A stretch of 20,000 nt of DNA, from IMG/VR virus record IMGVR_UViG_3300028888_000112; one strand, given 5' to 3'. The notes under the pieces were generated by a model. That model saw nothing but the letters and a program-made list of their open reading frames with translations, did not search any database and was not told the origin of the DNA. This document shows, one piece after another, positions 4,665-19,514 of the stretch. Each line of letters opens with the position of its first letter. The first letter of the stretch is position 1. The translations under genes and the position numbers were made by a program. The DNA is from an uncultured virus (IMG/VR IMGVR_UViG_3300028888_000112). Lineage: Duplodnaviria; Heunggongvirae; Uroviricota; Caudoviricetes.

Positions 4665-5147
4665 ATGTACATACCATCAAAAAAGGTAGTTAACGAGTAC
4701 GGCAAGTTCGACTCGGAGGGGGAGTGGGAGTGCTTTAAGCAAAAGATACTGCCCATGTCCGATGCGGGTTGGATTGACGGACTCGACCGTCAGGTGAGTT
4801 TTGAGATTATACCAAAGTTGACTATAAAAGTACCTGTCGTTCTTAAAACGAAGATAAAGGTTGTAGAGCGCGTGTTGGAGAGAGCCGCAGAGTACACCTG
4901 CGACTTTTTCTACCACGACAAGCGGGACGACACGACGCATATAGTTGAGTTTAAGTCTCGGTACTCAAGCACCGCCCGCGACTACCCGCTAAGGCGCAAG
5001 CTGATCAAGCGGTTAATATGCGAGTGGAACGAGAAGGAGGGGCGGACGAAGTACGTTTTTGATGAGTACAAGGACACCGACTTGGTAAAGGAAAAGAAAG
5101 TACGAACCAAAAAAACAAAGAGTTATGGCAAAAAAGGAAAAAGTTAG
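4665..5147 (+). CDS. DUF1064-like PD-(D/E)xK endonuclease
   Basis: KFDSEGE...RQVSFEIIPK...YTCDFFY...IVEFKS...YPLRRKL follows the FDS.E / Q..F.L / Y.ADF.Y / V.DVKG / Y.LK.KL pattern of this phage family. Confidence 0.8.
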   Translation: MYIPSKKVVNEYGKFDSEGEWECFKQKILPMSDAGWIDGLDRQVSFEIIPKLTIKVPVVLKTKIKVVERVLERAAEYTCDFFYHDKRDDTTHIVEFKSRYSSTARDYPLRRKLIKRLICEWNEKEGRTKYVFDEYKDTDLVKEKKVRTKKTKSYGKKGKS

Positions 5148-6078
5148 TATAATGGACGAGTACGCAAGCGACAGACCGTTGGTTATGCACTCTACAGGCA
5201 TTAAGGCTTTAGACGATATCAGCGGCGGCGGCTTGATGGAGGGCGCGTTGTACGCCTTTTGGGGAGAGCCTGGGACTGGCAAGTCCTCGCTGTGTGCGCA
5301 GATAGCGAAGAAGTTTTGTGACGACGGTTTCCGTGTCGCGTATATTGACTCGGAGAAGTCGCTCAACGACGTGCAGAAGGAGATCTACGGTCTTACCGAG
5401 TACTGCAAGGACACCGAGGCTAAGGGTGACCGTCTGCTGCGACATTTGAACACGGTTGAAACCTTTAAAAGGTGCGACAGCTGTGTTAAGGATCTTGTTG
5501 AGGAGGGAATCACCAAGCTTATTATCATCGACTCGGACTCGGAGCTTTTAGCCCGCAACGTCGAGGAGATGGACGTTGAGTCAAAGGTGATCGGCGAGCA
5601 CGCAAGGCAGTCGCAGATTATGCTTAACAACTTGAAGGTGCTCGTGCACGAAAACAACCTGATCGCGATTGTGCTTTTCCAAGCGCGTGCGAACATACAG
5701 ACGTTTGCGGCGTACGGTGCGCCCGACAAGAAGCAGGCGGGCGGTTTTAGCGGAAAGCACATCCCCGACGCCATTATGAAAGTGGGCAAGGGAGCTACGT
5801 TAAAGGATAACGACAACAAGCCGATAGGTCACATAATGAAGCTGACGTTTGAGAAAAACAAGATTTACAAGCCCGAGTCGACGGAGGTGCAGTTCTTGTA
5901 CGGTTACGGCGTAGCTATCAAGATTGGCGCAATTGACGCGGCTATAGAGCGTGGCTTAATCGAGAAGAGCGGCAACAGCTATCTGCTTGGGAACGGCAGC
6001 AAGTACGTCGGCAAGAAGGCGTTGTACGATATGAGCGACGAGGATTTTGAGTATTTGGACAGCATTTTAAGCGAATAA
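5125..6078 (+). CDS. recA: RecA/UvsX-like recombinase ATPase
   Basis: STGIKALD..GGG, Walker A GEPGTGKS, AYIDSEKS, Walker B IIIDS, IGEHAR, Q.RA.I....G.P....GG, EKNK, FLYGYG, GLIEKSG. Confidence 0.9.
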   Translation: MAKKEKVSIMDEYASDRPLVMHSTGIKALDDISGGGLMEGALYAFWGEPGTGKSSLCAQIAKKFCDDGFRVAYIDSEKSLNDVQKEIYGLTEYCKDTEAKGDRLLRHLNTVETFKRCDSCVKDLVEEGITKLIIIDSDSELLARNVEEMDVESKVIGEHARQSQIMLNNLKVLVHENNLIAIVLFQARANIQTFAAYGAPDKKQAGGFSGKHIPDAIMKVGKGATLKDNDNKPIGHIMKLTFEKNKIYKPESTEVQFLYGYGVAIKIGAIDAAIERGLIEKSGNSYLLGNGSKYVGKKALYDMSDEDFEYLDSILSE

Positions 6079-6082
6079 CACT

Positions 6083-6514
6083 ATGGCAAAGAAAAAGTTT
6101 TTTGAATCGGACGATCAGATTGTTAAGCTGATCACCGAGCGTGCAGTGGTTAACGGCTTGACCGAGTGCGGGGTAAACGTACAGGTTATGTCGACCACAA
6201 AGCAGAAAGAGGTAATCAAGGTGGGTAAGGCATCCGATCCCACGGAGTTTCTAACCAAGACAGACAACGCGGTGCAGCTTTTTGTATACGAGGAGGTCTT
6301 TTTGGAGCTTGACGAGGAGTTGCAGAAGTTCTTGGTTGAGTTTGCCTTTGACGGGGTTTACTACGACTCCGACAAGGATCGCGTGATGCTTGAGAAGAAC
6401 CCGTACGTTCCGCTCTTTGACTTGCGCCGCAAGTACGGGGAGCGTGCGGACGAGCTGCTTGAGGCTGCTTACCTTGCGGTAAAGCAGAAGGCTGACAAAA
6501 ACAACGAAGAGTAA
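6083..6514 (+). CDS. Hypothetical protein resembling phage putative-metallopeptidase domains but lacking HExxH
   Basis: KVGKAS...FL....V.LFVYEEVF.ELDEE.QKFLVE...V.Y......EK resembles that family; no His zinc ligands are present. Confidence 0.45.
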   Translation: MAKKKFFESDDQIVKLITERAVVNGLTECGVNVQVMSTTKQKEVIKVGKASDPTEFLTKTDNAVQLFVYEEVFLELDEELQKFLVEFAFDGVYYDSDKDRVMLEKNPYVPLFDLRRKYGERADELLEAAYLAVKQKADKNNEE

Positions 6515-8885: not shown

Positions 8886-9611
8886 GTGATTAGATTTTGG
8901 CATTGGTTGAATATTCAAGGCAAAAGTGATTGGAATGATAATAACTTCTATTACATAAAAATCATATTCAATGATTCTGTGAACATACCATACGGCTCTA
9001 TCAGTTTTTCAGACGGTTCTTCTACGAATCTAAGTAATATTCAGACTAAAGTTATAGGTAATCAAACTTATTACTACTATGAATATCCTAAGACAAAGAA
9101 AATAACAGGTTTACCTAATATGTTCTTTTATTCTTTAGACGCTTACCTTATAGAGATGACAGAACCTTTGGATTTATTCGGTTTCGAGTCAGGTAGCTGC
9201 TTCAGAATGTTCCAAGGTTTTTTTACAGTATTCTCAATACCTAACGCTACATTTGGAAGCTTGTCAGACGCCATGTCAGTACATGGTCAGGTGTTCAACT
9301 TTTTTCATACAGACACTCTTATTCTACCTAAGAATAAACTAAAGCAGAATATGGATCTCAGCAGTACAGCCTATTTTTCAAAACAGCAGATATATGATAT
9401 TGTTGATTGGTGTGCTAACGATGGAAATAGTTATTCTTTATATCTGAATATAGGAACTGATAGCTGTTACGGTAGTGATTTAGTGACAGCTAATCAAAAA
9501 GTTCAAGATGTACGCCAAAATCCAAGTAGTTACATAATATCAGATACAGAACTGTTACAAATAGACACTACACTTGCTAACAAGAATTGGACATTATATT
9601 TATATAGTTAA
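8886..9611 (+). CDS. Putative receptor-binding/fibre-tip protein A (starts MIRFWHWLN)
   Basis: GTG start 12 nt after the fibre stop; AT-rich; N-terminus shared with the next gene; C-terminal 'LANKNWTL' resembles caps of LRR-like phage proteins. Confidence 0.55.
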   Translation: MIRFWHWLNIQGKSDWNDNNFYYIKIIFNDSVNIPYGSISFSDGSSTNLSNIQTKVIGNQTYYYYEYPKTKKITGLPNMFFYSLDAYLIEMTEPLDLFGFESGSCFRMFQGFFTVFSIPNATFGSLSDAMSVHGQVFNFFHTDTLILPKNKLKQNMDLSSTAYFSKQQIYDIVDWCANDGNSYSLYLNIGTDSCYGSDLVTANQKVQDVRQNPSSYIISDTELLQIDTTLANKNWTLYLYS

Positions 9612-9648
9612 TAATAAAAAGATGATACGGTTTTGGCATTGGTTGAAT
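8895..9648 (+). repeat. 18-bp exact direct repeat TTTTGGCATTGGTTGAAT at 8895-8912 and 9631-9648
   Basis: Read directly; occupies codons 4-9 (FWHWLN) of both genes. Confidence 0.95.
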
Positions 9649-10758
9649 CAGAATAAAATAAAATTCTTTTGTGTTAGGGGTACAAGTTCTAATATAGGAG
9701 GTACTGAGACTTTTGCTATCACATATAGTGATGGCTCGTCAGGTGAGACTGTGACTGTAGACTCTAACGGCAACTGGGTTTTTTATTATAAAGACAAATC
9801 AATAACAGATATAACATATTTTGCATCATCTAATAATAATATCTTGAGTGTTGATTTTTCTGATAGTGATATTACTGACTTAAGTACATGTGCTTTTAGA
9901 TACTGCAGCAATCTGACAAGTGTTACTTTAACCGATGCTGTTGCCCATGTCGGTAAATTGGCGTTTGCTAACTGTACAGAACTATTAGAAGTTCTGATAA
10001 ATGATAAGCAAATAATACAACCTCAAATCGAAGTAAGAAGTATTGAAGAAAGCGCCTTTCAAGGCTGTACGAAATTAGAATCTTTAGAGATACCTTCATC
10101 AATCACTATCATAGAAGGTGGTGTTTTTGCTAACTGTAATATTTCTCATTTGGATATACCTAATTCAATCACAAGCATTGGAAATAATGCTTTTGGTAGA
10201 TATAAAGGTACAACATTGGTAGTCCCTAATTCAGTCGCTTCTTTTGGACAAGCCGTATTCATGCTCTGTGAGAATCTTCAAAGCGCTTCTATCCCATTTG
10301 TGGGACGTGAAAAATACAGTACTGGTGATGGAAAAAGACAATACACTTTCGGAGATATGTTTGCTGGTTTTATACAACAAGGAGATGATCCTAATAAATT
10401 TGTATCTTGTTCTTATATCTATTATGATGATTCGCAAAGCAGATACATTGAAAGCAACGGTTATTACCCTGTCTCTTTGACACACATAACAATAACAAAT
10501 CAAGAATATCTGCAACCGTATGTCTTCGGCGAATGTACCACATTGACATCTATAACATTTGACTGTCCCTTACAAAAAATAGCAGCTTTCGCGTTCCGAG
10601 ACTGCACAGGGTTGACAAGTATCACAATCCCAAGCACAGTCACCGAAATACATACCTATGCTTTTTACGGATGCACTAACCTTAGAACAATATATTATTC
10701 AGGTACAGCAACAGGCGCACCTTGGAGTGCTTCTAATGCAACTGTAATATCTACTTGA
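9622..10758 (+). CDS. BspA-type leucine-rich-repeat protein, putative adhesin B (starts MIRFWHWLN)
   Basis: Multiple AF..C..L.S(I/L).IP.S(I/V)T.I repeats (LRR_5/BspA-like) and C-terminal GAPWSASNATV. The true start is ATG 9622 by homology with the upstream gene. Confidence 0.85.
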   Translation: MIRFWHWLNQNKIKFFCVRGTSSNIGGTETFAITYSDGSSGETVTVDSNGNWVFYYKDKSITDITYFASSNNNILSVDFSDSDITDLSTCAFRYCSNLTSVTLTDAVAHVGKLAFANCTELLEVLINDKQIIQPQIEVRSIEESAFQGCTKLESLEIPSSITIIEGGVFANCNISHLDIPNSITSIGNNAFGRYKGTTLVVPNSVASFGQAVFMLCENLQSASIPFVGREKYSTGDGKRQYTFGDMFAGFIQQGDDPNKFVSCSYIYYDDSQSRYIESNGYYPVSLTHITITNQEYLQPYVFGECTTLTSITFDCPLQKIAAFAFRDCTGLTSITIPSTVTEIHTYAFYGCTNLRTIYYSGTATGAPWSASNATVIST

Positions 10759-14266: not shown

Positions 14267-14800
14267 ATGGAAATAGATTACAAGAAACTATATGAAGAAG
14301 CTCTTGAAAGAGCGAGGAAGTTTACGATTCCTGATGCTGTTGAGGCTCTTAAATACGTTTTTCCCGAACTTGCAGAGAGCGAAGATGAGAGGGTAAGGAA
14401 AGAACTGTTAGAGCATTGCATTAATAGAAGAGATGGAAAACAAGTCTGTGTTGATGCAGGTGATTATAGAAGATGGGCAGATTGGCTTGAAAAGCAAGGT
14501 GAAAAGTCAAATAGTGTGTACGACGAGGAATTGTCAGAAATGCTTGGTAGTATTATACGCAGATATATCAATGACCCCAACATTCCATATACCGAAAGAG
14601 AAAAGGTTTCAATGGAAATCATACCTTATGTGGAAAGGCTTGAAAAGCAAGGAGAGCAGAACAATATCGTTCAGCAGTTGACCGCCTTCGCTCAACACCT
14701 ACAAAAGCGTGGCGCTTTCCGTGACGACCTATGTATGGACTTCGAGCACGAGGCGCAGTCATTCGTTGAGTCACAAAATTACAAACAATCAATAAGGTGA
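14267..14800 (+). CDS. Array family B protein (FPELAESEDE / WLEKQGE)
   Basis: Shares motifs with 16475-17482 and 17784-18639; contains two LEKQGE copies. Confidence 0.85.
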   Translation: MEIDYKKLYEEALERARKFTIPDAVEALKYVFPELAESEDERVRKELLEHCINRRDGKQVCVDAGDYRRWADWLEKQGEKSNSVYDEELSEMLGSIIRRYINDPNIPYTEREKVSMEIIPYVERLEKQGEQNNIVQQLTAFAQHLQKRGAFRDDLCMDFEHEAQSFVESQNYKQSIR

Positions 14801-14803
14801 GAA

Positions 14804-15040
14804 ATGGAAACACAAAACGAAATTAAAGCTAAAGAATTTGCTACAACAGAAGATGGCAAAATAATAAGTTTTGCTTATATCGCTGCAATGCGAATGGCGT
14901 TGTGGAAAGACGAACAACTTATAGACAAGGTTTATGAAGCGTATTGTAAGGCGTGCGGACATTTTGCTCACACTACACCAATAGAAACTCGCAGACAATA
15001 TTGCCAACGTTATGAGGATTTCAAACAAATAATAAAATAG
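14804..15040 (+). CDS. Array family A protein (NE.KA / WKDEQ / LIDK)
   Basis: N-terminal half is highly similar to 15051-15305. Confidence 0.8.
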   Translation: METQNEIKAKEFATTEDGKIISFAYIAAMRMALWKDEQLIDKVYEAYCKACGHFAHTTPIETRRQYCQRYEDFKQIIK

Positions 15041-15050
15041 TAATACAACT

Positions 15051-15305
15051 ATGGAAACAATATCAAACGAAGAAAAAGCAATAGAATTTGCAACAAGTTA
15101 TGACGGCAAAATTATAAGTTTTGCACATCTCGCCGCATTACAGATGGGACAATGGAAAGACGAACAAATATTGTCAGACGATGATGATAAACTCGCTACC
15201 GAAGTAAAGGTTGATAGTGTTACGATAACACCACCACAGGGTTATCTAATCGGCAGGGTTACACACATTAAAGATAGTTTGATTGTGGAATTTAAAAAAC
15301 ATTGA
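15051..15305 (+). CDS. Array family A protein with an unrelated C-terminal module
   Basis: KAIEFATSYDGKIISFA..AA..M..WKDEQ, then diverges from its neighbour. Confidence 0.8.
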   Translation: METISNEEKAIEFATSYDGKIISFAHLAALQMGQWKDEQILSDDDDKLATEVKVDSVTITPPQGYLIGRVTHIKDSLIVEFKKH

Positions 15306-15308
15306 GTT

Positions 15309-15590
15309 ATGAAAACAATCACAAACGAAGAGAAAGCGAAGAATATGACCAAAGGCTTTTTAAAAGAAGGGTTGATTAAAAAAAGCCGACTGCAAGAATT
15401 GTTAATTAAAGCAATGGGTTGGAAGGATGAGCAACACGCACAAGAGAAACAACAATGGGTTGACAAGGCGGTTGATTTCATCAGTAAGCGTTTTTATATA
15501 GGAATTAACAACCATATAACATCAAAAGAAGATTATTACTCTCTTACGGAGTTAATAAGGGATTTTGAACAAACAATGAAAGGAGAATAA
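15309..15590 (+). CDS. Array family A protein
   Basis: TNEEKA...AMGWKDEQ..QEKQQWVDKAV...FEQTMKGE*. Confidence 0.8.
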   Translation: MKTITNEEKAKNMTKGFLKEGLIKKSRLQELLIKAMGWKDEQHAQEKQQWVDKAVDFISKRFYIGINNHITSKEDYYSLTELIRDFEQTMKGE

Positions 15591-15595
15591 CAACT

Positions 15596-15847
15596 ATGAC
15601 AAGAGATGAAGAAATAGAACAAGTAGCAAAAGACATAGCAAGAAAATTCTACAATGAAGAAAATCCAAATATTGCTTATCGTTCAGTGAGACAAGGTATA
15701 TTATGGGCTGACCAGCACCCATCTATAGATACAGTAAAGAAGATTATATGTTATGCACTAAAGAAAACAAACATAATGCTTGCAGAAGACTTGGAAAACG
15801 GTGTAGAATGGGAACTTTTAATTAAACAAGCAATGAAAGGAGAATAG
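15596..15847 (+). CDS. Array protein (MTRDEEI...G..WADQHP...QAMKGE)
   Basis: Shares the C-terminal MKGE* junction with its neighbours. Confidence 0.8.
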   Translation: MTRDEEIEQVAKDIARKFYNEENPNIAYRSVRQGILWADQHPSIDTVKKIICYALKKTNIMLAEDLENGVEWELLIKQAMKGE

Positions 15848-15851
15848 AACT

Positions 15852-16121
15852 ATGGAAATAACAAACAAAGAAAAAGCAAGGGAAATTTGCGGTTGTGGTA
15901 ACTGCCACCACAATTTTAAAGGAAACGAATGCCTAAAGTATACGGGAATATTATGTTGTTTGAAACCTTGTTTTAAAGACACATTACAAGCAATGGAGTG
16001 GAAAGACGAGCAGTTCGTACAAGAAAAGCAACAACTGATTGATAAGGCTTGGGATTGGCTCACTAATCAAAAGGGCGAGCACACCAAAGAAGACTTTATT
16101 AAAGCAATTAAAGGAGAGTAA
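15852..16121 (+). CDS. Array family A protein with a Cys-rich insert
   Basis: TNKEKAREI[CGCGNCHH..C..CC..C]QAMEWKDEQ..QEKQQLIDKA...IKGE*. Confidence 0.8.
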   Translation: MEITNKEKAREICGCGNCHHNFKGNECLKYTGILCCLKPCFKDTLQAMEWKDEQFVQEKQQLIDKAWDWLTNQKGEHTKEDFIKAIKGE

Positions 16122-16123
16122 TT

Positions 16124-16300
16124 ATGAAATCAAGAGCCGTTACTGTAATAGTAAAAGAAACCGATGATGAACGCAGTGTTGCTTCCGATTTTAAATCTTT
16201 ACGAAAAGCCGCAAGAGCAATCAATGTAAGTGAAGATATTATTAGGGACTGCTGCAACGGAAAAAGAGAACACGATATTTTTAAATTTAAATGGATTTAA
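16124..16300 (+). CDS. Stand-alone NUMOD1/IENR1-like helix-turn-helix protein (58 aa); not in the ORF track
   Basis: FKSLRKAARAINVSEDIIRDCCNGKREHDIFKFKW fits the F.S..EAAR.....I..CC.GK....(F/Y).W pattern of homing-endonuclease DNA-binding modules; no nuclease domain. Confidence 0.7.
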   Translation: MKSRAVTVIVKETDDERSVASDFKSLRKAARAINVSEDIIRDCCNGKREHDIFKFKWI

Positions 16301-16316
16301 TTAAAGGAGAATAGAA

Positions 16317-16478
16317 ATGTACGAGTTTAAATGGAACATAAAGATTGGACTTCTGTGCGTATCGTGGGCGAAAGACTACGAAAGCGACTTTATGAAGTTC
16401 GCGGAGACTTACGCAGACGAATCATTGGTGTTCCTGCGCATATACAAATTGTGTTTAACTAAATTTAAAAGAGTATGA
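16317..16478 (+). CDS. Hypothetical protein (53 aa); not in the ORF track
   Basis: MYEFKWNIKIGLLCVSWAKDY...KFKRV*; preceded by AAAGGAGAATAGAA and ATGA-coupled to the next gene. Confidence 0.65.
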   Translation: MYEFKWNIKIGLLCVSWAKDYESDFMKFAETYADESLVFLRIYKLCLTKFKRV

Positions 16479-17482
16479 ATATGACTACTTACGAGAGAGC
16501 GAAAGCTTATGAGCATGTTTCTCAAAAAGTGAAAGACTTTTTTGAAGGCAAGCAAAAAATGTATAGTGACGTTAAACAAACATTAGAGTATCTTTTCCCT
16601 GAGCTTGCGGGGAGCGAGGATATTAGAGAGCGTTTAATTAACACCATTAAATCTTCGGCACAAATTGATTATTGTTTACAAAAAGAAGGATTCAAAGTAA
16701 AAGAAGTGATTGCTTGGCTTGAAAAGCAAGGTGAGTTGATAGAGAAACCAACTAAAGACCAAGTGTGGGATTATTGCAGTAAAATATCAAGAGAGTGGTG
16801 GCAGATAACTATGAATAGGTGGAATACTCTCACTGATGAAGAAAAAGACAAATATAACCAATTTATTGGCTTTAATGATTTTAGTGACACGTTGATGAAC
16901 ATCACCGCAGGTGCATTGTTTCAATTAAGAGATACAGGCAAATTGGAATATGAGGAAGGAGGTTTACTACTTGAAAAACCAGATGATACACCAAAACCAC
17001 TTAAAGTTATAAATGAAAAACAAGAGTGGAGTGAGGAGGATGAATATTACATCAATACAATTCTCAACGGGCTTGATTTAAAGAGATGTCTCTTTAGGAA
17101 AGAAGGAAATGAAATAGAAGAAGAGAGATACAATACACAATATAATTGGCTCAAATCCTTCAAAAACAGAGTACAACTGCAACAAAAACAAGAGTGGAGT
17201 GAGGAGGATGAGGTTATGCTTCAAACCACAATAGATACTTTGGAAGATTTTAGTAAAGGCAAATTACCGCTTTCTGGTTCTGGATATGATATTGCTATTG
17301 CAGAAATAGAGTGGCTTAAATCATTAAAACCACAATCACATTGGAAACCTACTGATGAGCAGATGAATTGCTTTAAGCAAGCGATTGATTTGTTCAAAAT
17401 GAAAGTCAATGATGATTTAGTTCTGCGGAATTTAAATTCGCTTTACAAGGAACTTGAAGATTTATATGAACAGGAGGGTTGA
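16475..17482 (+). CDS. Array family B protein, long form
   Basis: FPELAGSED, AWLEKQGE, KQEWSEEDE x2, WLKS x2, WKPTDEQ. Confidence 0.85.
   Translation: MNMTTYERAKAYEHVSQKVKDFFEGKQKMYSDVKQTLEYLFPELAGSEDIRERLINTIKSSAQIDYCLQKEGFKVKEVIAWLEKQGELIEKPTKDQVWDYCSKISREWWQITMNRWNTLTDEEKDKYNQFIGFNDFSDTLMNITAGALFQLRDTGKLEYEEGGLLLEKPDDTPKPLKVINEKQEWSEEDEYYINTILNGLDLKRCLFRKEGNEIEEERYNTQYNWLKSFKNRVQLQQKQEWSEEDEVMLQTTIDTLEDFSKGKLPLSGSGYDIAIAEIEWLKSLKPQSHWKPTDEQMNCFKQAIDLFKMKVNDDLVLRNLNSLYKELEDLYEQEG
17016..17211 (+). repeat. 28-bp exact direct repeat AAAAACAAGAGTGGAGTGAGGAGGATGA at 17016-17043 and 17184-17211
   Basis: Read directly; period 168 nt (in frame); the sequence between and after the copies is largely unrelated. 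Confidence 0.95.
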
Positions 17483-17485
17483 ATC

Positions 17486-17746
17486 ATGCAATCAATAACA
17501 ATGACGGACGAAGCGTATGATATTTCGATACAACGTCCAACAGAATACGAAAACAAGGGTTTCACGGACGAAGTGTACGTGCGGTTACAACGTTACAACG
17601 CTGCGATGTCGGCGATGGAGTGGATGATTGGGCGTGTGACCGAATGGTTGAACGAGAATGCAACGATATACGCACATTTCGACGATTATTCCACACTTGA
17701 CGAAATGGTCGAGGATTTGAAAAACGACATTAAACGTGGCGAATGA
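17486..17746 (+). CDS. Hypothetical protein, distant relative of array family A
   Basis: AAMSAMEW...EWL.EN...DLK..IKRGE*. Confidence 0.75.
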   Translation: MQSITMTDEAYDISIQRPTEYENKGFTDEVYVRLQRYNAAMSAMEWMIGRVTEWLNENATIYAHFDDYSTLDEMVEDLKNDIKRGE

Positions 17747-17783
17747 CTAAAAACATACGGATATGAACAAGGAGGAAAAAACT

Positions 17784-18639
17784 ATGGACTATAAAGAAAA
17801 ATTGGAATTGGCTAAAGATTTGTATAATGACCAATCCACAACTAAAAAGGAAAAAGTATTGCTTGAAAACTTGTTCCCCGAACTTGCGGAAAGCGAGGAT
17901 GAGAATATAAGGAAAGAACTGATAAATTTTATTAAACAAGAAGCAAATAGTGCTACCTTAAACGCTAATAGATTGAAATTCAAATCTATGCTTACTTGAC
18001 TTGAAAAGCAAGGTGAACCACAAGATAACGGTGAAATATCTGATGGGTATCATACCTTTAATGAACTTTATTATTACCGAATGCTTTACAATGCTGCGTT
18101 CTTTAATATGCTTCCAAAGGAATGGGTACATAAAAGTAAGAAGCATCATGATGGTGAAGAGTGTTTTGGAGGAGGTTGGTTTATTGTAATGGCTAATCTT
18201 CCGACAGGACAGATTAGTAATCACTATGAACTTAAAGATTGGGATTTGTTCCAAATTACAGAAAAGGAAGTAGCAGACAAACGGGATGGTCATACCCCTC
18301 AAGAAGCAGCTGAAAGATTACATAAATATCTGCTTGAAAAGCAAGGTGAGCAGAAACCTGCGAGGCGGAGTGATAAAGAATTTGATGACTTCTTTAACTT
18401 GGAATCAATTATTGATATTGTAGAGATGTATGGTAAAGGAGAAGTTGATTTGTATGGTAGCAATGTTACATCTGAATTAAAATGGCTCAAATCACTTCGT
18501 GATAGGGTGTATTGGAATACCAACGGATGAGCAGCTACATTGTTTTAAATGTGTTATTGATTTTTATAAGATAAAAGTTAATGATACTATTGTTCTAAAC
18601 CTTCTTGATTCTCTTTACAATGACCTTAAAAAACTTTGA
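17784..18639 (+). pseudogene. Disrupted family B gene carrying a WDGH-motif domain insert
   Basis: In-frame TGA at 17997-17999 where paralogs have Trp (WLEKQGE); +1 frameshift near 18516-18519, after which PTDEQLHCFK..ID..K.KVND..VL..L.SLY..L aligns with the C-terminus of 16475-17482; insert SDGYHTFNELY..R...GWFIV...LPTGQISNHY...DGHT. Confidence 0.8.
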
Positions 18640-18642
18640 GAT

Positions 18643-18969
18643 ATGACAAATGAACAAAACAAACAAAAAGCAAGGGAGATTGTAGAACAATACGAAACGA
18701 GATATAATGATACTCGTGACTTGTTGTGGGAAGATTTGGAAGATATTGCTATGCAAGCGATGAATTGGAAGGACAAAAAGCGAAAAGAGTTGTGGCGCAT
18801 AACTCGCAACCATTACCAAGAATGGGCGGAAGAACAAATCGCAAAAGAAAAGCAAAAGCTGATTGAGAAGGCGGTGGAATACATTAAAATTCATACGCTT
18901 AAAACAATGAGTTCAAGGGACATAAACAATATAATAGTCGATTTCAAACAAGTAATGGAAGGAGAATGA
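18643..18969 (+). CDS. Array family A protein
   Basis: QKAREI...AMQAMNWKD...KEKQKLIEKAV...FKQVMEGE*. Confidence 0.8.
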   Translation: MTNEQNKQKAREIVEQYETRYNDTRDLLWEDLEDIAMQAMNWKDKKRKELWRITRNHYQEWAEEQIAKEKQKLIEKAVEYIKIHTLKTMSSRDINNIIVDFKQVMEGE

Positions 18970-18972
18970 GTT

Positions 18973-19514
18973 ATGGGTAGTATAGTTATGCAATGTCCAT
19001 ATTTTGTGACAGATGGTCTTTCAAGATTTTGTATGAATGGAAAATTTCCATGTGATTGTGAAAGATGTAGTTGTTCTGACAAACAATATGTTGAAATCAC
19101 TACAACCACAACAACGGGTACAAGTGAGCAACCTAATTATTTTAAAAAGAAATGGGCACAATACATTGACAAATCTGCTTTAGTAGCGGAGATAGAGAAA
19201 CTAATGAATAATTATAGCGAACTTCCAACTCGTAACTCCTATGAAGATGGATTAAAAGATGGCAGACTTATCGGATATAAAGATGCTCTGTATAAAATCA
19301 ACTCCCTTGAAGTGAAAGATGTGGACTTGGATGCTACTGATTACCAGAAACAGCAACTCATCGACAAAGCAAGAAGTTTCGTTATGGGGAAGCACTCAAC
19401 TACTTCGTCAGCGACGGGATCTTTGAACTCGGTGAGTTTATGAATGACCTTGAGGAATTTATGAAAGGAGAGTGGAGAGCTTGCGACAACTTCAAACACA
19501 AGCCGCTTTTATAA
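18973..19514 (+). pseudogene. Apparent fusion of a Cys-rich small gene with a (M)AQYIDKSALVAEIE gene, plus a frameshifted family A tail
   Basis: ATG-G-GCA-CAA at 19152-19161 looks like a start with one extra G. After KQQLIDKA, the family A ending (FMNDLEEFMKGE) lies in the -1 frame, which stops at 19514. Confidence 0.55.

Follow-up and report, generated by a model that had tools for sequence, protein, structure and literature searches.

How a phage gene can hold unrelated domains within a common scaffold of short motifs is the question raised by three genes of an uncultured gut virus of the Caudoviricetes (IMG/VR record IMGVR_UViG_3300028888_000112). The stretch of this virus analysed here, called the window, is 20,000 nucleotides (nt) long, and the three genes lie on its plus strand between positions 14,267 and 18,639. 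An initial annotation had read them as one scaffold in which unrelated segments were inserted in frame between junctions of identical DNA. The scaffold was confirmed: the motifs FPEL, ESEDE, WLEKQ, WSEED, WLKS and WKPT were confined to genes 1-3 in a protein motif scan of the window, and the segments between them were unrelated. The genes are apparently members of a very large and undescribed family of phage proteins built like beads on a string, the beads being modules that end in a short translated linker, LEKQGE, at which whole modules were found to be gained or lost.

Scaffold, junctions and cargo of the three genes

Family gene 1 (14267..14800, 177 amino acids (aa), defined by its open reading frame (ORF), translation and motifs) begins with an N-terminal unit (FPEL-ESEDE...WLEKQGE), continues with a module of 51 aa ending in RLEKQGE and closes with a unique C-terminal tail. 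Family gene 2 (16475..17482, 335 aa by translation) consists of the N-terminal unit, a cargo domain of three predicted helices at approximately residues 89-180 (16739..17014), two WSEEDE...WLKS hairpin repeats and a C-terminal unit, WKPTDEQ...LY.EL. Family gene 3 (17763..18639) is broken, and comprises the N-terminal unit, a cassette with the WDGH domain (18014..18332, Pfam PF25311), one WLKSL hairpin and the C-terminal unit in another frame. The junction 14-mer CTTGAAAAGCAAGG, encoding LEKQG, was found in five exact copies on the plus strand without a mismatch, against a chance expectation of 0.02, and none of 200 shuffles reached five. Copy 1 (14486..14499) ends the N-terminal unit of gene 1, copy 2 (14639..14652) is the tail of the gene 1 module, the rest of which lies between them (14500..14638), and copy 3 (16718..16731) ends the N-terminal unit of gene 2. 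Copy 4 (18000..18013) and copy 5 (18333..18346) stand on either side of the WDGH cassette, the latter being the tail of that module (...KYLLEKQGEQKP). An exact search found no copy elsewhere in the window. A second repeat, of 28 nt and 100% identity, encodes KQEWSEEDE at the start of hairpin repeat 1 (17016..17043) and of hairpin repeat 2 (17184..17211) in gene 2, while the remainder of both 168-nt units is approximately random. The initial annotation was thus exact as to the five copies without synonymous change and as to the 28-bp repeat. The spacing of the copies by multiples of three, which it had also pointed out, follows from their sharing one frame of one ORF. Its remark that the flanks diverge immediately held for the upstream side; downstream, similarity persists whenever the same cargo comes next.

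The family to which these genes belong is large. A search with gene 2 gave 3592 proteins at E<=0.001 among 8000 candidates scored, and one with the WDGH cassette (residues 79-200 of gene 3) gave 7260 matches from 7323 candidates, the best 120 of which were 84-96% identical and lay in proteins of 150-447 aa. An alignment of 38 homologues showed conserved motifs with unalignable inserts in between. The recurring parts were the N-terminal helical unit FPEL-ESEDE...WLEKQGE, a variable series of cargo domains, zero to several WSEEDE...WLKSLK helical hairpins and an end unit, WKP(S/T)DEQ...LYNDLKKL. The tail of a module is a hydrophobic residue followed by LEKQGE and often by QKP; at one metagenome locus (L246) four consecutive modules end in WLEKQGK, WLEEQGK, RLEKQGE and FIEKQGE, i.e., [WRF][LI]E[KE]QG[EK]. 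Comparison of the homologues showed that the parts are mosaic, one N-terminal unit occurring with different cargo and one cargo with different neighbours. Protein P0004 joins the N-terminus of gene 3 to the cargo of gene 2, P0023 joins the N-terminus of gene 2 to another cargo, and P0039 has the gene 3 hairpin followed by an end like that of gene 2. An identical copy of gene 2 was recorded on a contig of 140,339 bases. Megablast of 14267-18639 against known phage records gave no match, and none of the 26 pattern matches of gene 2 alone against viral contigs was confirmed. A literature search, with subscription journals outside its coverage, returned nothing relevant on the family motifs or on PF25311, and a description of the family was not among its results.

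Since every module ends in a LEKQGE tail, any insert appears bracketed by duplicated junctions. The duplication had been taken for the mark of a single-crossover integration. This interpretation was not sustained, because every module carries its own tail, and the pair of junctions is a form of punctuation, made up of the tail of the preceding unit and the tail of the insert itself, with no integration scar.

The cargo domains have lives of their own outside the scaffold. Residues 90-188 of the gene 3 read-through matched the Pfam family WDGH (PF25311) with E 9.7e-38 and 128.8 bits (cut-off 27) over profile positions 1-96 of 97, so that the 333-nt pair at 18000 and 18333 does enclose, as had been stated, a whole WDGH domain, matched nearly end to end. 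Among the 120 best WDGH matches 114 fitted the core pattern, and a junction-like motif was present at most 22 residues to the left of the core in 92 of these and at most 30 residues to its right in 76, the sequences diverging directly past ...YLLEKQGEQKP. Both junctions were absent from stand-alone WDGH proteins (121-126 aa) and from other WDGH fusions. The cargo of gene 2 likewise occurs after WLEKQGE in scaffold proteins, with a DNA identity of 0.71-0.92 among the scaffolded copies, and also without any scaffold motif (loci L248-L253). The only cargo with a Pfam name in the homologues was a GNAT acetyltransferase, in three of the 78 scanned. As the WDGH domain and the gene 2 cargo are both found off the scaffold, the description of unrelated domains between junctions was upheld, and the inserts would be independent domains captured into the scaffold. 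Fold and sequence searches gave no match that suggested a function: in phmmer comparisons with PDB sequences gene 3 had two matches only, both with E >0.2, and gene 2 had none, and Foldseek of the gene 2 model against PDB and BFVD returned nothing at E<=0.001. We also noticed that WDGH is widespread and highly conserved in viral contigs (L266, L268-L336) in the 121-126-aa stand-alone forms, and that it occurs in fusions of 215 aa as well, across many contigs of approximately 150 kilobases (kb); no relative of solved structure was found for it.

Gene 3 is not intact. We found three lesions in it: an in-frame TGA (17997..17999) at the tryptophan (Trp) position of WLEKQGE, where the other copies have TGG; one extra base at approximately 18516-18518, which shifts the frame within the WKPT motif (18513..18521); and the reading KRDGH, with Arg in place of the Trp of WDGH, a residue kept in at least 90% of 42 aligned homologues. 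The C-terminal unit can be read from 18517 as IPTDEQLHCFKCVIDFYKIKVNDTIVLNLLDSLYNDLKKL, followed by a stop. Decoding of TGA as Trp was considered and ruled out, since TGA terminates 13 of 39 chosen ORFs of the window. Together the TGA, the frameshift and the lost Trp point to a decaying copy, which would fit a rapid birth and death of family members. As a further observation, all three lesions hit Trp codons of conserved motifs (TGG to TGA at 17997-17999, Trp to Arg in WDGH at approximately 18284-18286, and the extra base directly after the Trp of WKPT at 18513-18518), and two of the three lie within recombination-prone motifs. They may be due to chance or may be scars of faulty exchange.

Junction DNA and the gain, loss and exchange of modules

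Viral contigs were searched for W[L/F]EKQGE with a degenerate pattern that favoured no codon, which gave 123 matches at 121 loci. The exact 14-mer was present in 62 of the 123, and most of the others were one synonymous change away. LEKQG was written as CTTGAAAAGCAAGGT in 27 of 54 copies from 45 family ORFs, compared with 3.3% expected from codon usage. Third positions were evaluated on 85 junction copies with unique flanks, from 82 loci. The major allele had a share of 0.88 for CTT (background 0.38), 0.95 for GAA (0.68), 0.85 for AAG (0.39), 0.95 for CAA (0.70) and 0.73 for GGT (0.46), the mean of the flanks being 0.52; binomial p values, calculated on counts rounded from the shares, ranged from 4e-7 to 9e-22. 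Local codon context does not explain this bias, because the same codon pairs are spread out off the junctions, EK being written GAAAAA in 0.37 and GAAAAG in 0.32, and KQ being written AAACAA in 0.55. As a control, a degenerate DNA pattern was run on bacterial genomes and gave 128 matches, 120 of them due to chance. In these 120 non-family occurrences of the peptide the codons were spread out and the canonical 14-mer was outside the 12 commonest forms; of the eight family-like occurrences five were canonical. Between proteins of different loci with less than 70% identity, codon identity for Leu was 0.79 at the junctions versus 0.37 elsewhere, and for Gln 0.90 versus 0.62, while the gain for Glu, Lys and Gly codons was small. 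The other scaffold motifs behaved similarly, with rare codons fixed in both: WLKSL was TGGCTCAAATCCCTC in 11 of 32 copies (0.08% expected) and WKPS was TGGAAGCCGAGT in 13 of 23 (1.1% expected). Many loci with nothing else in common carry the window segment 16708-16735 at 100% identity over 27-29 nt.

The third positions and the codon-identity comparison thus agree that codon choice at the junctions varies less than the synonymous background, a check proposed at the outset. Normal synonymous variation at the junctions had been named as the result that would speak against the initial annotation, and in part the data do so: uniformity is in excess, yet synonymous variants are common, only 62 of 123 copies being canonical. 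Conservation of the junction DNA beyond codon bias is real but partial. The 14-mer also holds a half-palindrome, CTTG-N5-CAAG, and the CTT and CAA codons that preserve it are among the strongest-fixed choices.

Module gain and loss was seen most directly in a trio of metagenome contigs (L243, L244 and L246). L243 and L244 are 95.9% identical over 147 nt before the junction and 93.3% identical over 596 nt after it. L244 alone has an extra module of 171 nt between two copies of the junction. The single junction of L243 combines CTC from the first copy of L244 with GAA from the second, and this mixture of left and right variants confines the crossover to the 12 nt GAAAAGCAAGGT, inside approximately 37 nt of imperfect identity. 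Compared with L244, L246 has 312 nt more, corresponding to two modules, in the same place and ending at junctions. The expectation that modules are gained or lost exactly at the repeats was therefore confirmed in close relatives (L243, L244 and L246), with one crossover placed within 12 nt. All fetched loci together gave ten distinct indels between close relatives, of which eight were in loci without the scaffold. The two in family genes each fall on WLEKQGE and have lengths divisible by 3. Of 407 ends of long DNA matches inside family ORFs, 24.6% lay within 6 nt of a motif, compared with 10.5% for random places.

Several segments of the window itself have relatives that end at, or extend between, junctions. 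The gene 1 module with both its junctions (14482-14650) was 89.9% identical over 169 nt to locus L040, where it sits in a gene of 426 aa on a viral contig of 435 kb and is followed by quite different domains. A bovine-metagenome contig matched 17995-18356 with 29 other letters, the match ending there, and in a comparison of the WDGH cassette DNA with four viral loci (L257-L260) similarity ran from the left junction to the right junction. One contig from run X4 fuses 18376-18510 directly to 17340-17455, the joint falling on the WKP motif that holds the frameshift of gene 3. In the comparison with reads, one of the eight listed runs contained the stretch (word share 0.97) and may itself be the source of this DNA; all four runs compared consist of contigs, in which rare variants are lost. 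No contig of this phage-containing run bridged a clean deletion between the repeat pairs. The joints listed in the read table have sides of 19-27 nt and an undefined middle, and were read as other family members.

Explanations of the uniform junctions

The best reading of these results, to which we assign a probability of roughly 0.6, is that ordinary short-homology recombination or slippage takes place at conserved in-frame linkers. Uniform tails in one frame would give any two modules approximately 12-37 nt of near-identity in direct orientation, and the partner could be in the same gene, in a paralogue or in another phage infecting the same cell. Whole domains would be deleted, duplicated or exchanged by crossing-over within such patches, or by slippage of replication and template switching there, and an exchange inside the tail would leave the frame and the folds unbroken. 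Modules would be lost or duplicated within one gene, and exchanged between paralogues and co-infecting phages. We infer that the uniformity of the junction DNA is kept by conversion and hitch-hiking during the exchanges and not by another constraint, and likewise the direction of each module event. The acting enzyme would be a RecA/UvsX-like protein of the phage or the recombination machinery of the host, or the slippage would be independent of any recombinase. A RecA/UvsX-like gene lies at 5125..6078 on the plus strand (Pfam RecA 4.7e-15; phrog_97 UvsX-like 4e-30) and is a candidate enzyme only; next to it, also on the plus strand, is a Holliday-junction-resolvase-like gene (4665..5147, phrog_190 1.9e-10, with no Pfam match). 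The initial annotation had suggested that the phage's own RecA and single-stranded-DNA-binding protein (SSB) might take part; the ORF taken for the SSB, of 143 aa at 6083-6514, had no Pfam or PHROG match. Of the broader proposal of domain building by short-homology recombination, the exchange at junctions is supported by the junction indels and the crossover, and the circular integration route was not supported.

Several points weigh against exchange at the linkers. Synonymous or conservative variants are present in about one junction copy out of two; the left junction is approximately as variable as the cargo in the WDGH alignment, and in the gene 2 cargo set the junction codons are only modestly more uniform than those of the cargo. 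Just two clean module indels were found, and for approximately 60% of the DNA-match ends the nearest defined motif is over 60 nt away. Contigs, which drop rare variants, contained no deletion, duplication or circle form of the window's own genes; as such this null is no evidence against rare deletions or circles. A length of 12 nt is short for RecA-type exchange, and the phage recombinase may be irrelevant.

A bolder version, which we entertain only tentatively, holds that the linker DNA is itself the selected object, an 'address' that keeps phase across the phage pool of gut and rumen. Lineages keeping the linker could then draw domains from one another's genes, and a factor recognising CTTG-N5-CAAG might assist. 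If this were true, nature would have a counterpart of exon shuffling that needs no introns and by which new accessory proteins are built combinatorially.

The motifs may alternatively be nothing but helix ends and linkers of a repeated hairpin at the protein level, with DNA uniformity due to descent and mild codon constraint and recombination incidental; we regard this as rather unlikely. It is favoured by the profile-profile alignment of the WSEEDE...WLKSL unit with the ESEDE...WLEKQ unit (probability 92.8%, E 4e-7, 35 columns), although both unit alignments were picked with anchoring patterns and the match is partly by construction. The C-terminal unit did not match the hairpin profile significantly (E 0.025), and the 51-residue module of gene 1 gave no match to it. 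An AlphaFold2 model of gene 2, built on an alignment of 38 rows, was all helical, with a predicted local distance difference test score (pLDDT) of 75 and a predicted template-modelling score (pTM) of 0.40. It is a string of helical hairpins (helices 48-62/75-84, 187-210/213-233, 243-260/269-284 and 294-310/314-332) linked by low-confidence stretches, with the cargo modelled as a three-helix domain. In the gene 3 model the WDGH part contains strands, at low confidence (block-mean pLDDT 35-55). A single repeat fold underlying all the inserts had been named as a result that would refute the initial annotation. This holds in part: by the profile match and the model, one helical hairpin is repeated in the scaffold units, but the cargo inserts are not diverged copies of it, WDGH being a separate Pfam family. 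The frequency of junction variants also suits a purely protein-level account. What speaks against it are the third positions, which exceed background at the junctions (flanks 0.52), the rare codons fixed in WLKSL and WKPS, and the one crossover that maps within the motif.

It is improbable, in our judgement, that the linkers are cleavage sites of polyproteins cut by a protease of the phage or host, an idea that would make the DNA uniformity secondary and would in any case be compatible with exchange at the linkers. Low-confidence, unstructured stretches do follow the junctions in the models of genes 2 and 3. No protease gene was found among the window ORFs scanned against Pfam and PHROGs, cleavage leaves the third-position uniformity unexplained, and the Leu/Ile-x-Glu rule for sites of the T4 head protease is not obeyed by LEKQGE.

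We think it very improbable that the junction acts directly as DNA or RNA, be it as a protein-binding half-palindrome, a translational pause at domain borders or an RNA element. CTTG and CAAG are reverse complements, the codons CTT and CAA are the most strongly fixed, and rare codons are fixed at WLKSL and WKPS, all of which could be so explained. However, the stem would have 4 bp, the loop codons GAA and AAG are equally fixed, LEKQGE uses common codons and the window has no further copy of the 14-mer. When the five junction contexts were folded as RNA, they shared no structure and none was significant, the contexts folding neither alike nor better than shuffles (z -0.77, -0.08, -1.53, +0.10 and -1.95).

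There is hardly any likelihood left for the initial picture of cassettes, with small modules leaving as circles and entering through one crossover at the junction, possibly with a dedicated or phage recombination function: direct repeats do flank the inserts, indels end in them and the RecA/UvsX-like and resolvase-like genes lie 9 kb upstream, but the tail carried by every module makes integration unnecessary for the flanking repeats, the junctions have no consistent fold (z +0.10 to -1.95), neither circles, excision forms nor a dedicated enzyme were seen in window scans or contigs, and the 37 window ORFs and read-throughs compared with Pfam or PHROGs included no integrase, transposase or reverse-transcriptase family, the ORFs left out of these scans being small and unable to encode an integrase.

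Neighbouring genes and comparison with known systems

The genes of the window are tightly packed on the plus strand. Besides those already mentioned, an NAD (nicotinamide adenine dinucleotide)-dependent sugar epimerase/dehydratase is encoded at 307-1296 (Pfam Epimerase 2e-60) and a BspA-type leucine-rich-repeat protein at 9574-10758 (LRR_5 1.5e-50). Seven small tandem paralogous genes of 78-156 aa lie between the family genes (14804-16121) and at 18643-19443. Several share an N-terminal M(E/K)T..NEEKA and five share a W(K/A)(D/E)EQ...(K/R)QQ.(I/V)DKA core; in five the last residues are KGE or EGE, with a AAAGGAGA ribosome-binding site after the stop codon. These small paralogues are a second fast-evolving family. 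Strong Shine-Dalgarno-like AAAGGAGA sites precede gene starts at 15575-15592, 15832-15849 and 16299-16316. A contig of run X2 joins 15722-15835 directly to 16110-16313, both with no other letters, which indicates a close relative without the gene at 15852-16121. The joint falls within the repeated gene-end and ribosome-site sequence A(A/T)(T/G)(A/G)AAGGAGA (15832-15849 and 16106-16120), and the case is one of a complete gene lost or gained as a cassette at a short direct repeat, a gene-level version of linker exchange. The ORF of 58 aa at 16124-16300 had a weak match to a NUMOD-like module as in homing endonucleases of the I-HmuI type (E 1.1e-4; 22.1 bits against a cut-off of 27, which it misses), and may be a remnant of a nuclease gene at an exchange boundary. 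Family-like copies were present in genome bins of Bacteroidales/Prevotella and of Clostridium/Bacilli/Erysipelotrichaceae.

That phages exchange whole genes, or the loops of one adhesin, at conserved linkers has long been proposed, and here such exchange would act on complete domains. The family would give a concrete, testable case of fast building of multi-domain accessory proteins by phages, with a crossover of 12 nt whose small size opens the recombination route to enquiry. Similarity clustering fails on such proteins: 552 of 608 segments cut at the linkers fell in one single-linkage cluster, a collapse that occurred because the segments keep their motif ends, so that the clustering was dropped as uninformative. 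They also blur the gene-sharing networks used for phage classification. The family marks cargo domains (WDGH, the GNAT acetyltransferase and many without a name) whose recombination evidently pays for phages, and its linker could serve as a natural design rule for the joining of domains.

Conserved boundary 'linker' sequences are reportedly part of the modular theory of lambdoid phages, as Susskind and Botstein in 1978 and Clark et al. in 2001 are said to have put it. The likeness is in short conserved DNA at module borders amid unrelated sequence, serving as a site of homologous exchange, and both features were found here, as conserved border DNA stands between unrelated sequences and recombinant joints map into it. 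The linkers of the modular theory lie between genes, whereas those of the window are intragenic, translated and in phase, and join domains. Deletion between short direct repeats by slippage or template switching is a general mutational process of phages and bacteria, and the 171-nt module, bounded by direct repeats with 12 nt exact and present or absent between relatives, resembles its products. Unlike in plain slippage, conserved repeats stand in phase where domains meet, and the products are therefore viable new proteins. In polymorphic toxins, too, a short conserved peptide motif and its DNA mark the point at which C-terminal domains are exchanged by homologous recombination (VENN in CdiA, PxxxxDPxGL in Rhs, with orphan modules). 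These toxins have one switch point per protein and immunity genes that travel with the cargo, while the window family has many switch points per protein, no partner genes seen and a phage setting. The gain and loss of cassette-like units at a repeated site recalls integrons, but no integrase and no folded site of the attC type were found, and the units are domains inside a gene instead of promoterless genes. A diversity-generating retroelement is not indicated, as the scanned ORFs include no reverse-transcriptase family and the repeats are short linkers with no template/variable pair.

A close precedent is the gp38 adhesin of T-even phages, in which conserved glycine-rich motifs (GRMs) separate hypervariable segments and exchanges occur in or near the motifs (PMC3157838). 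The statement that no named system exists for such shuffling would hold for this family, which is apparently undescribed, and does not hold for the principle. Short conserved motifs alternate with highly variable segments within one gene in both cases, and the two have no sequence similarity. In gp38 the motifs form a fixed structural core and the variable segments are four loops of a single domain in strict order, while the window family gains, loses and reorders whole unrelated domains that fold independently and vary in number, and the protein is apparently not an adhesin. The principle itself is known; the difference lies in the units, which in this very large family are entire domains of unrelated kinds, with many of them in one gene.

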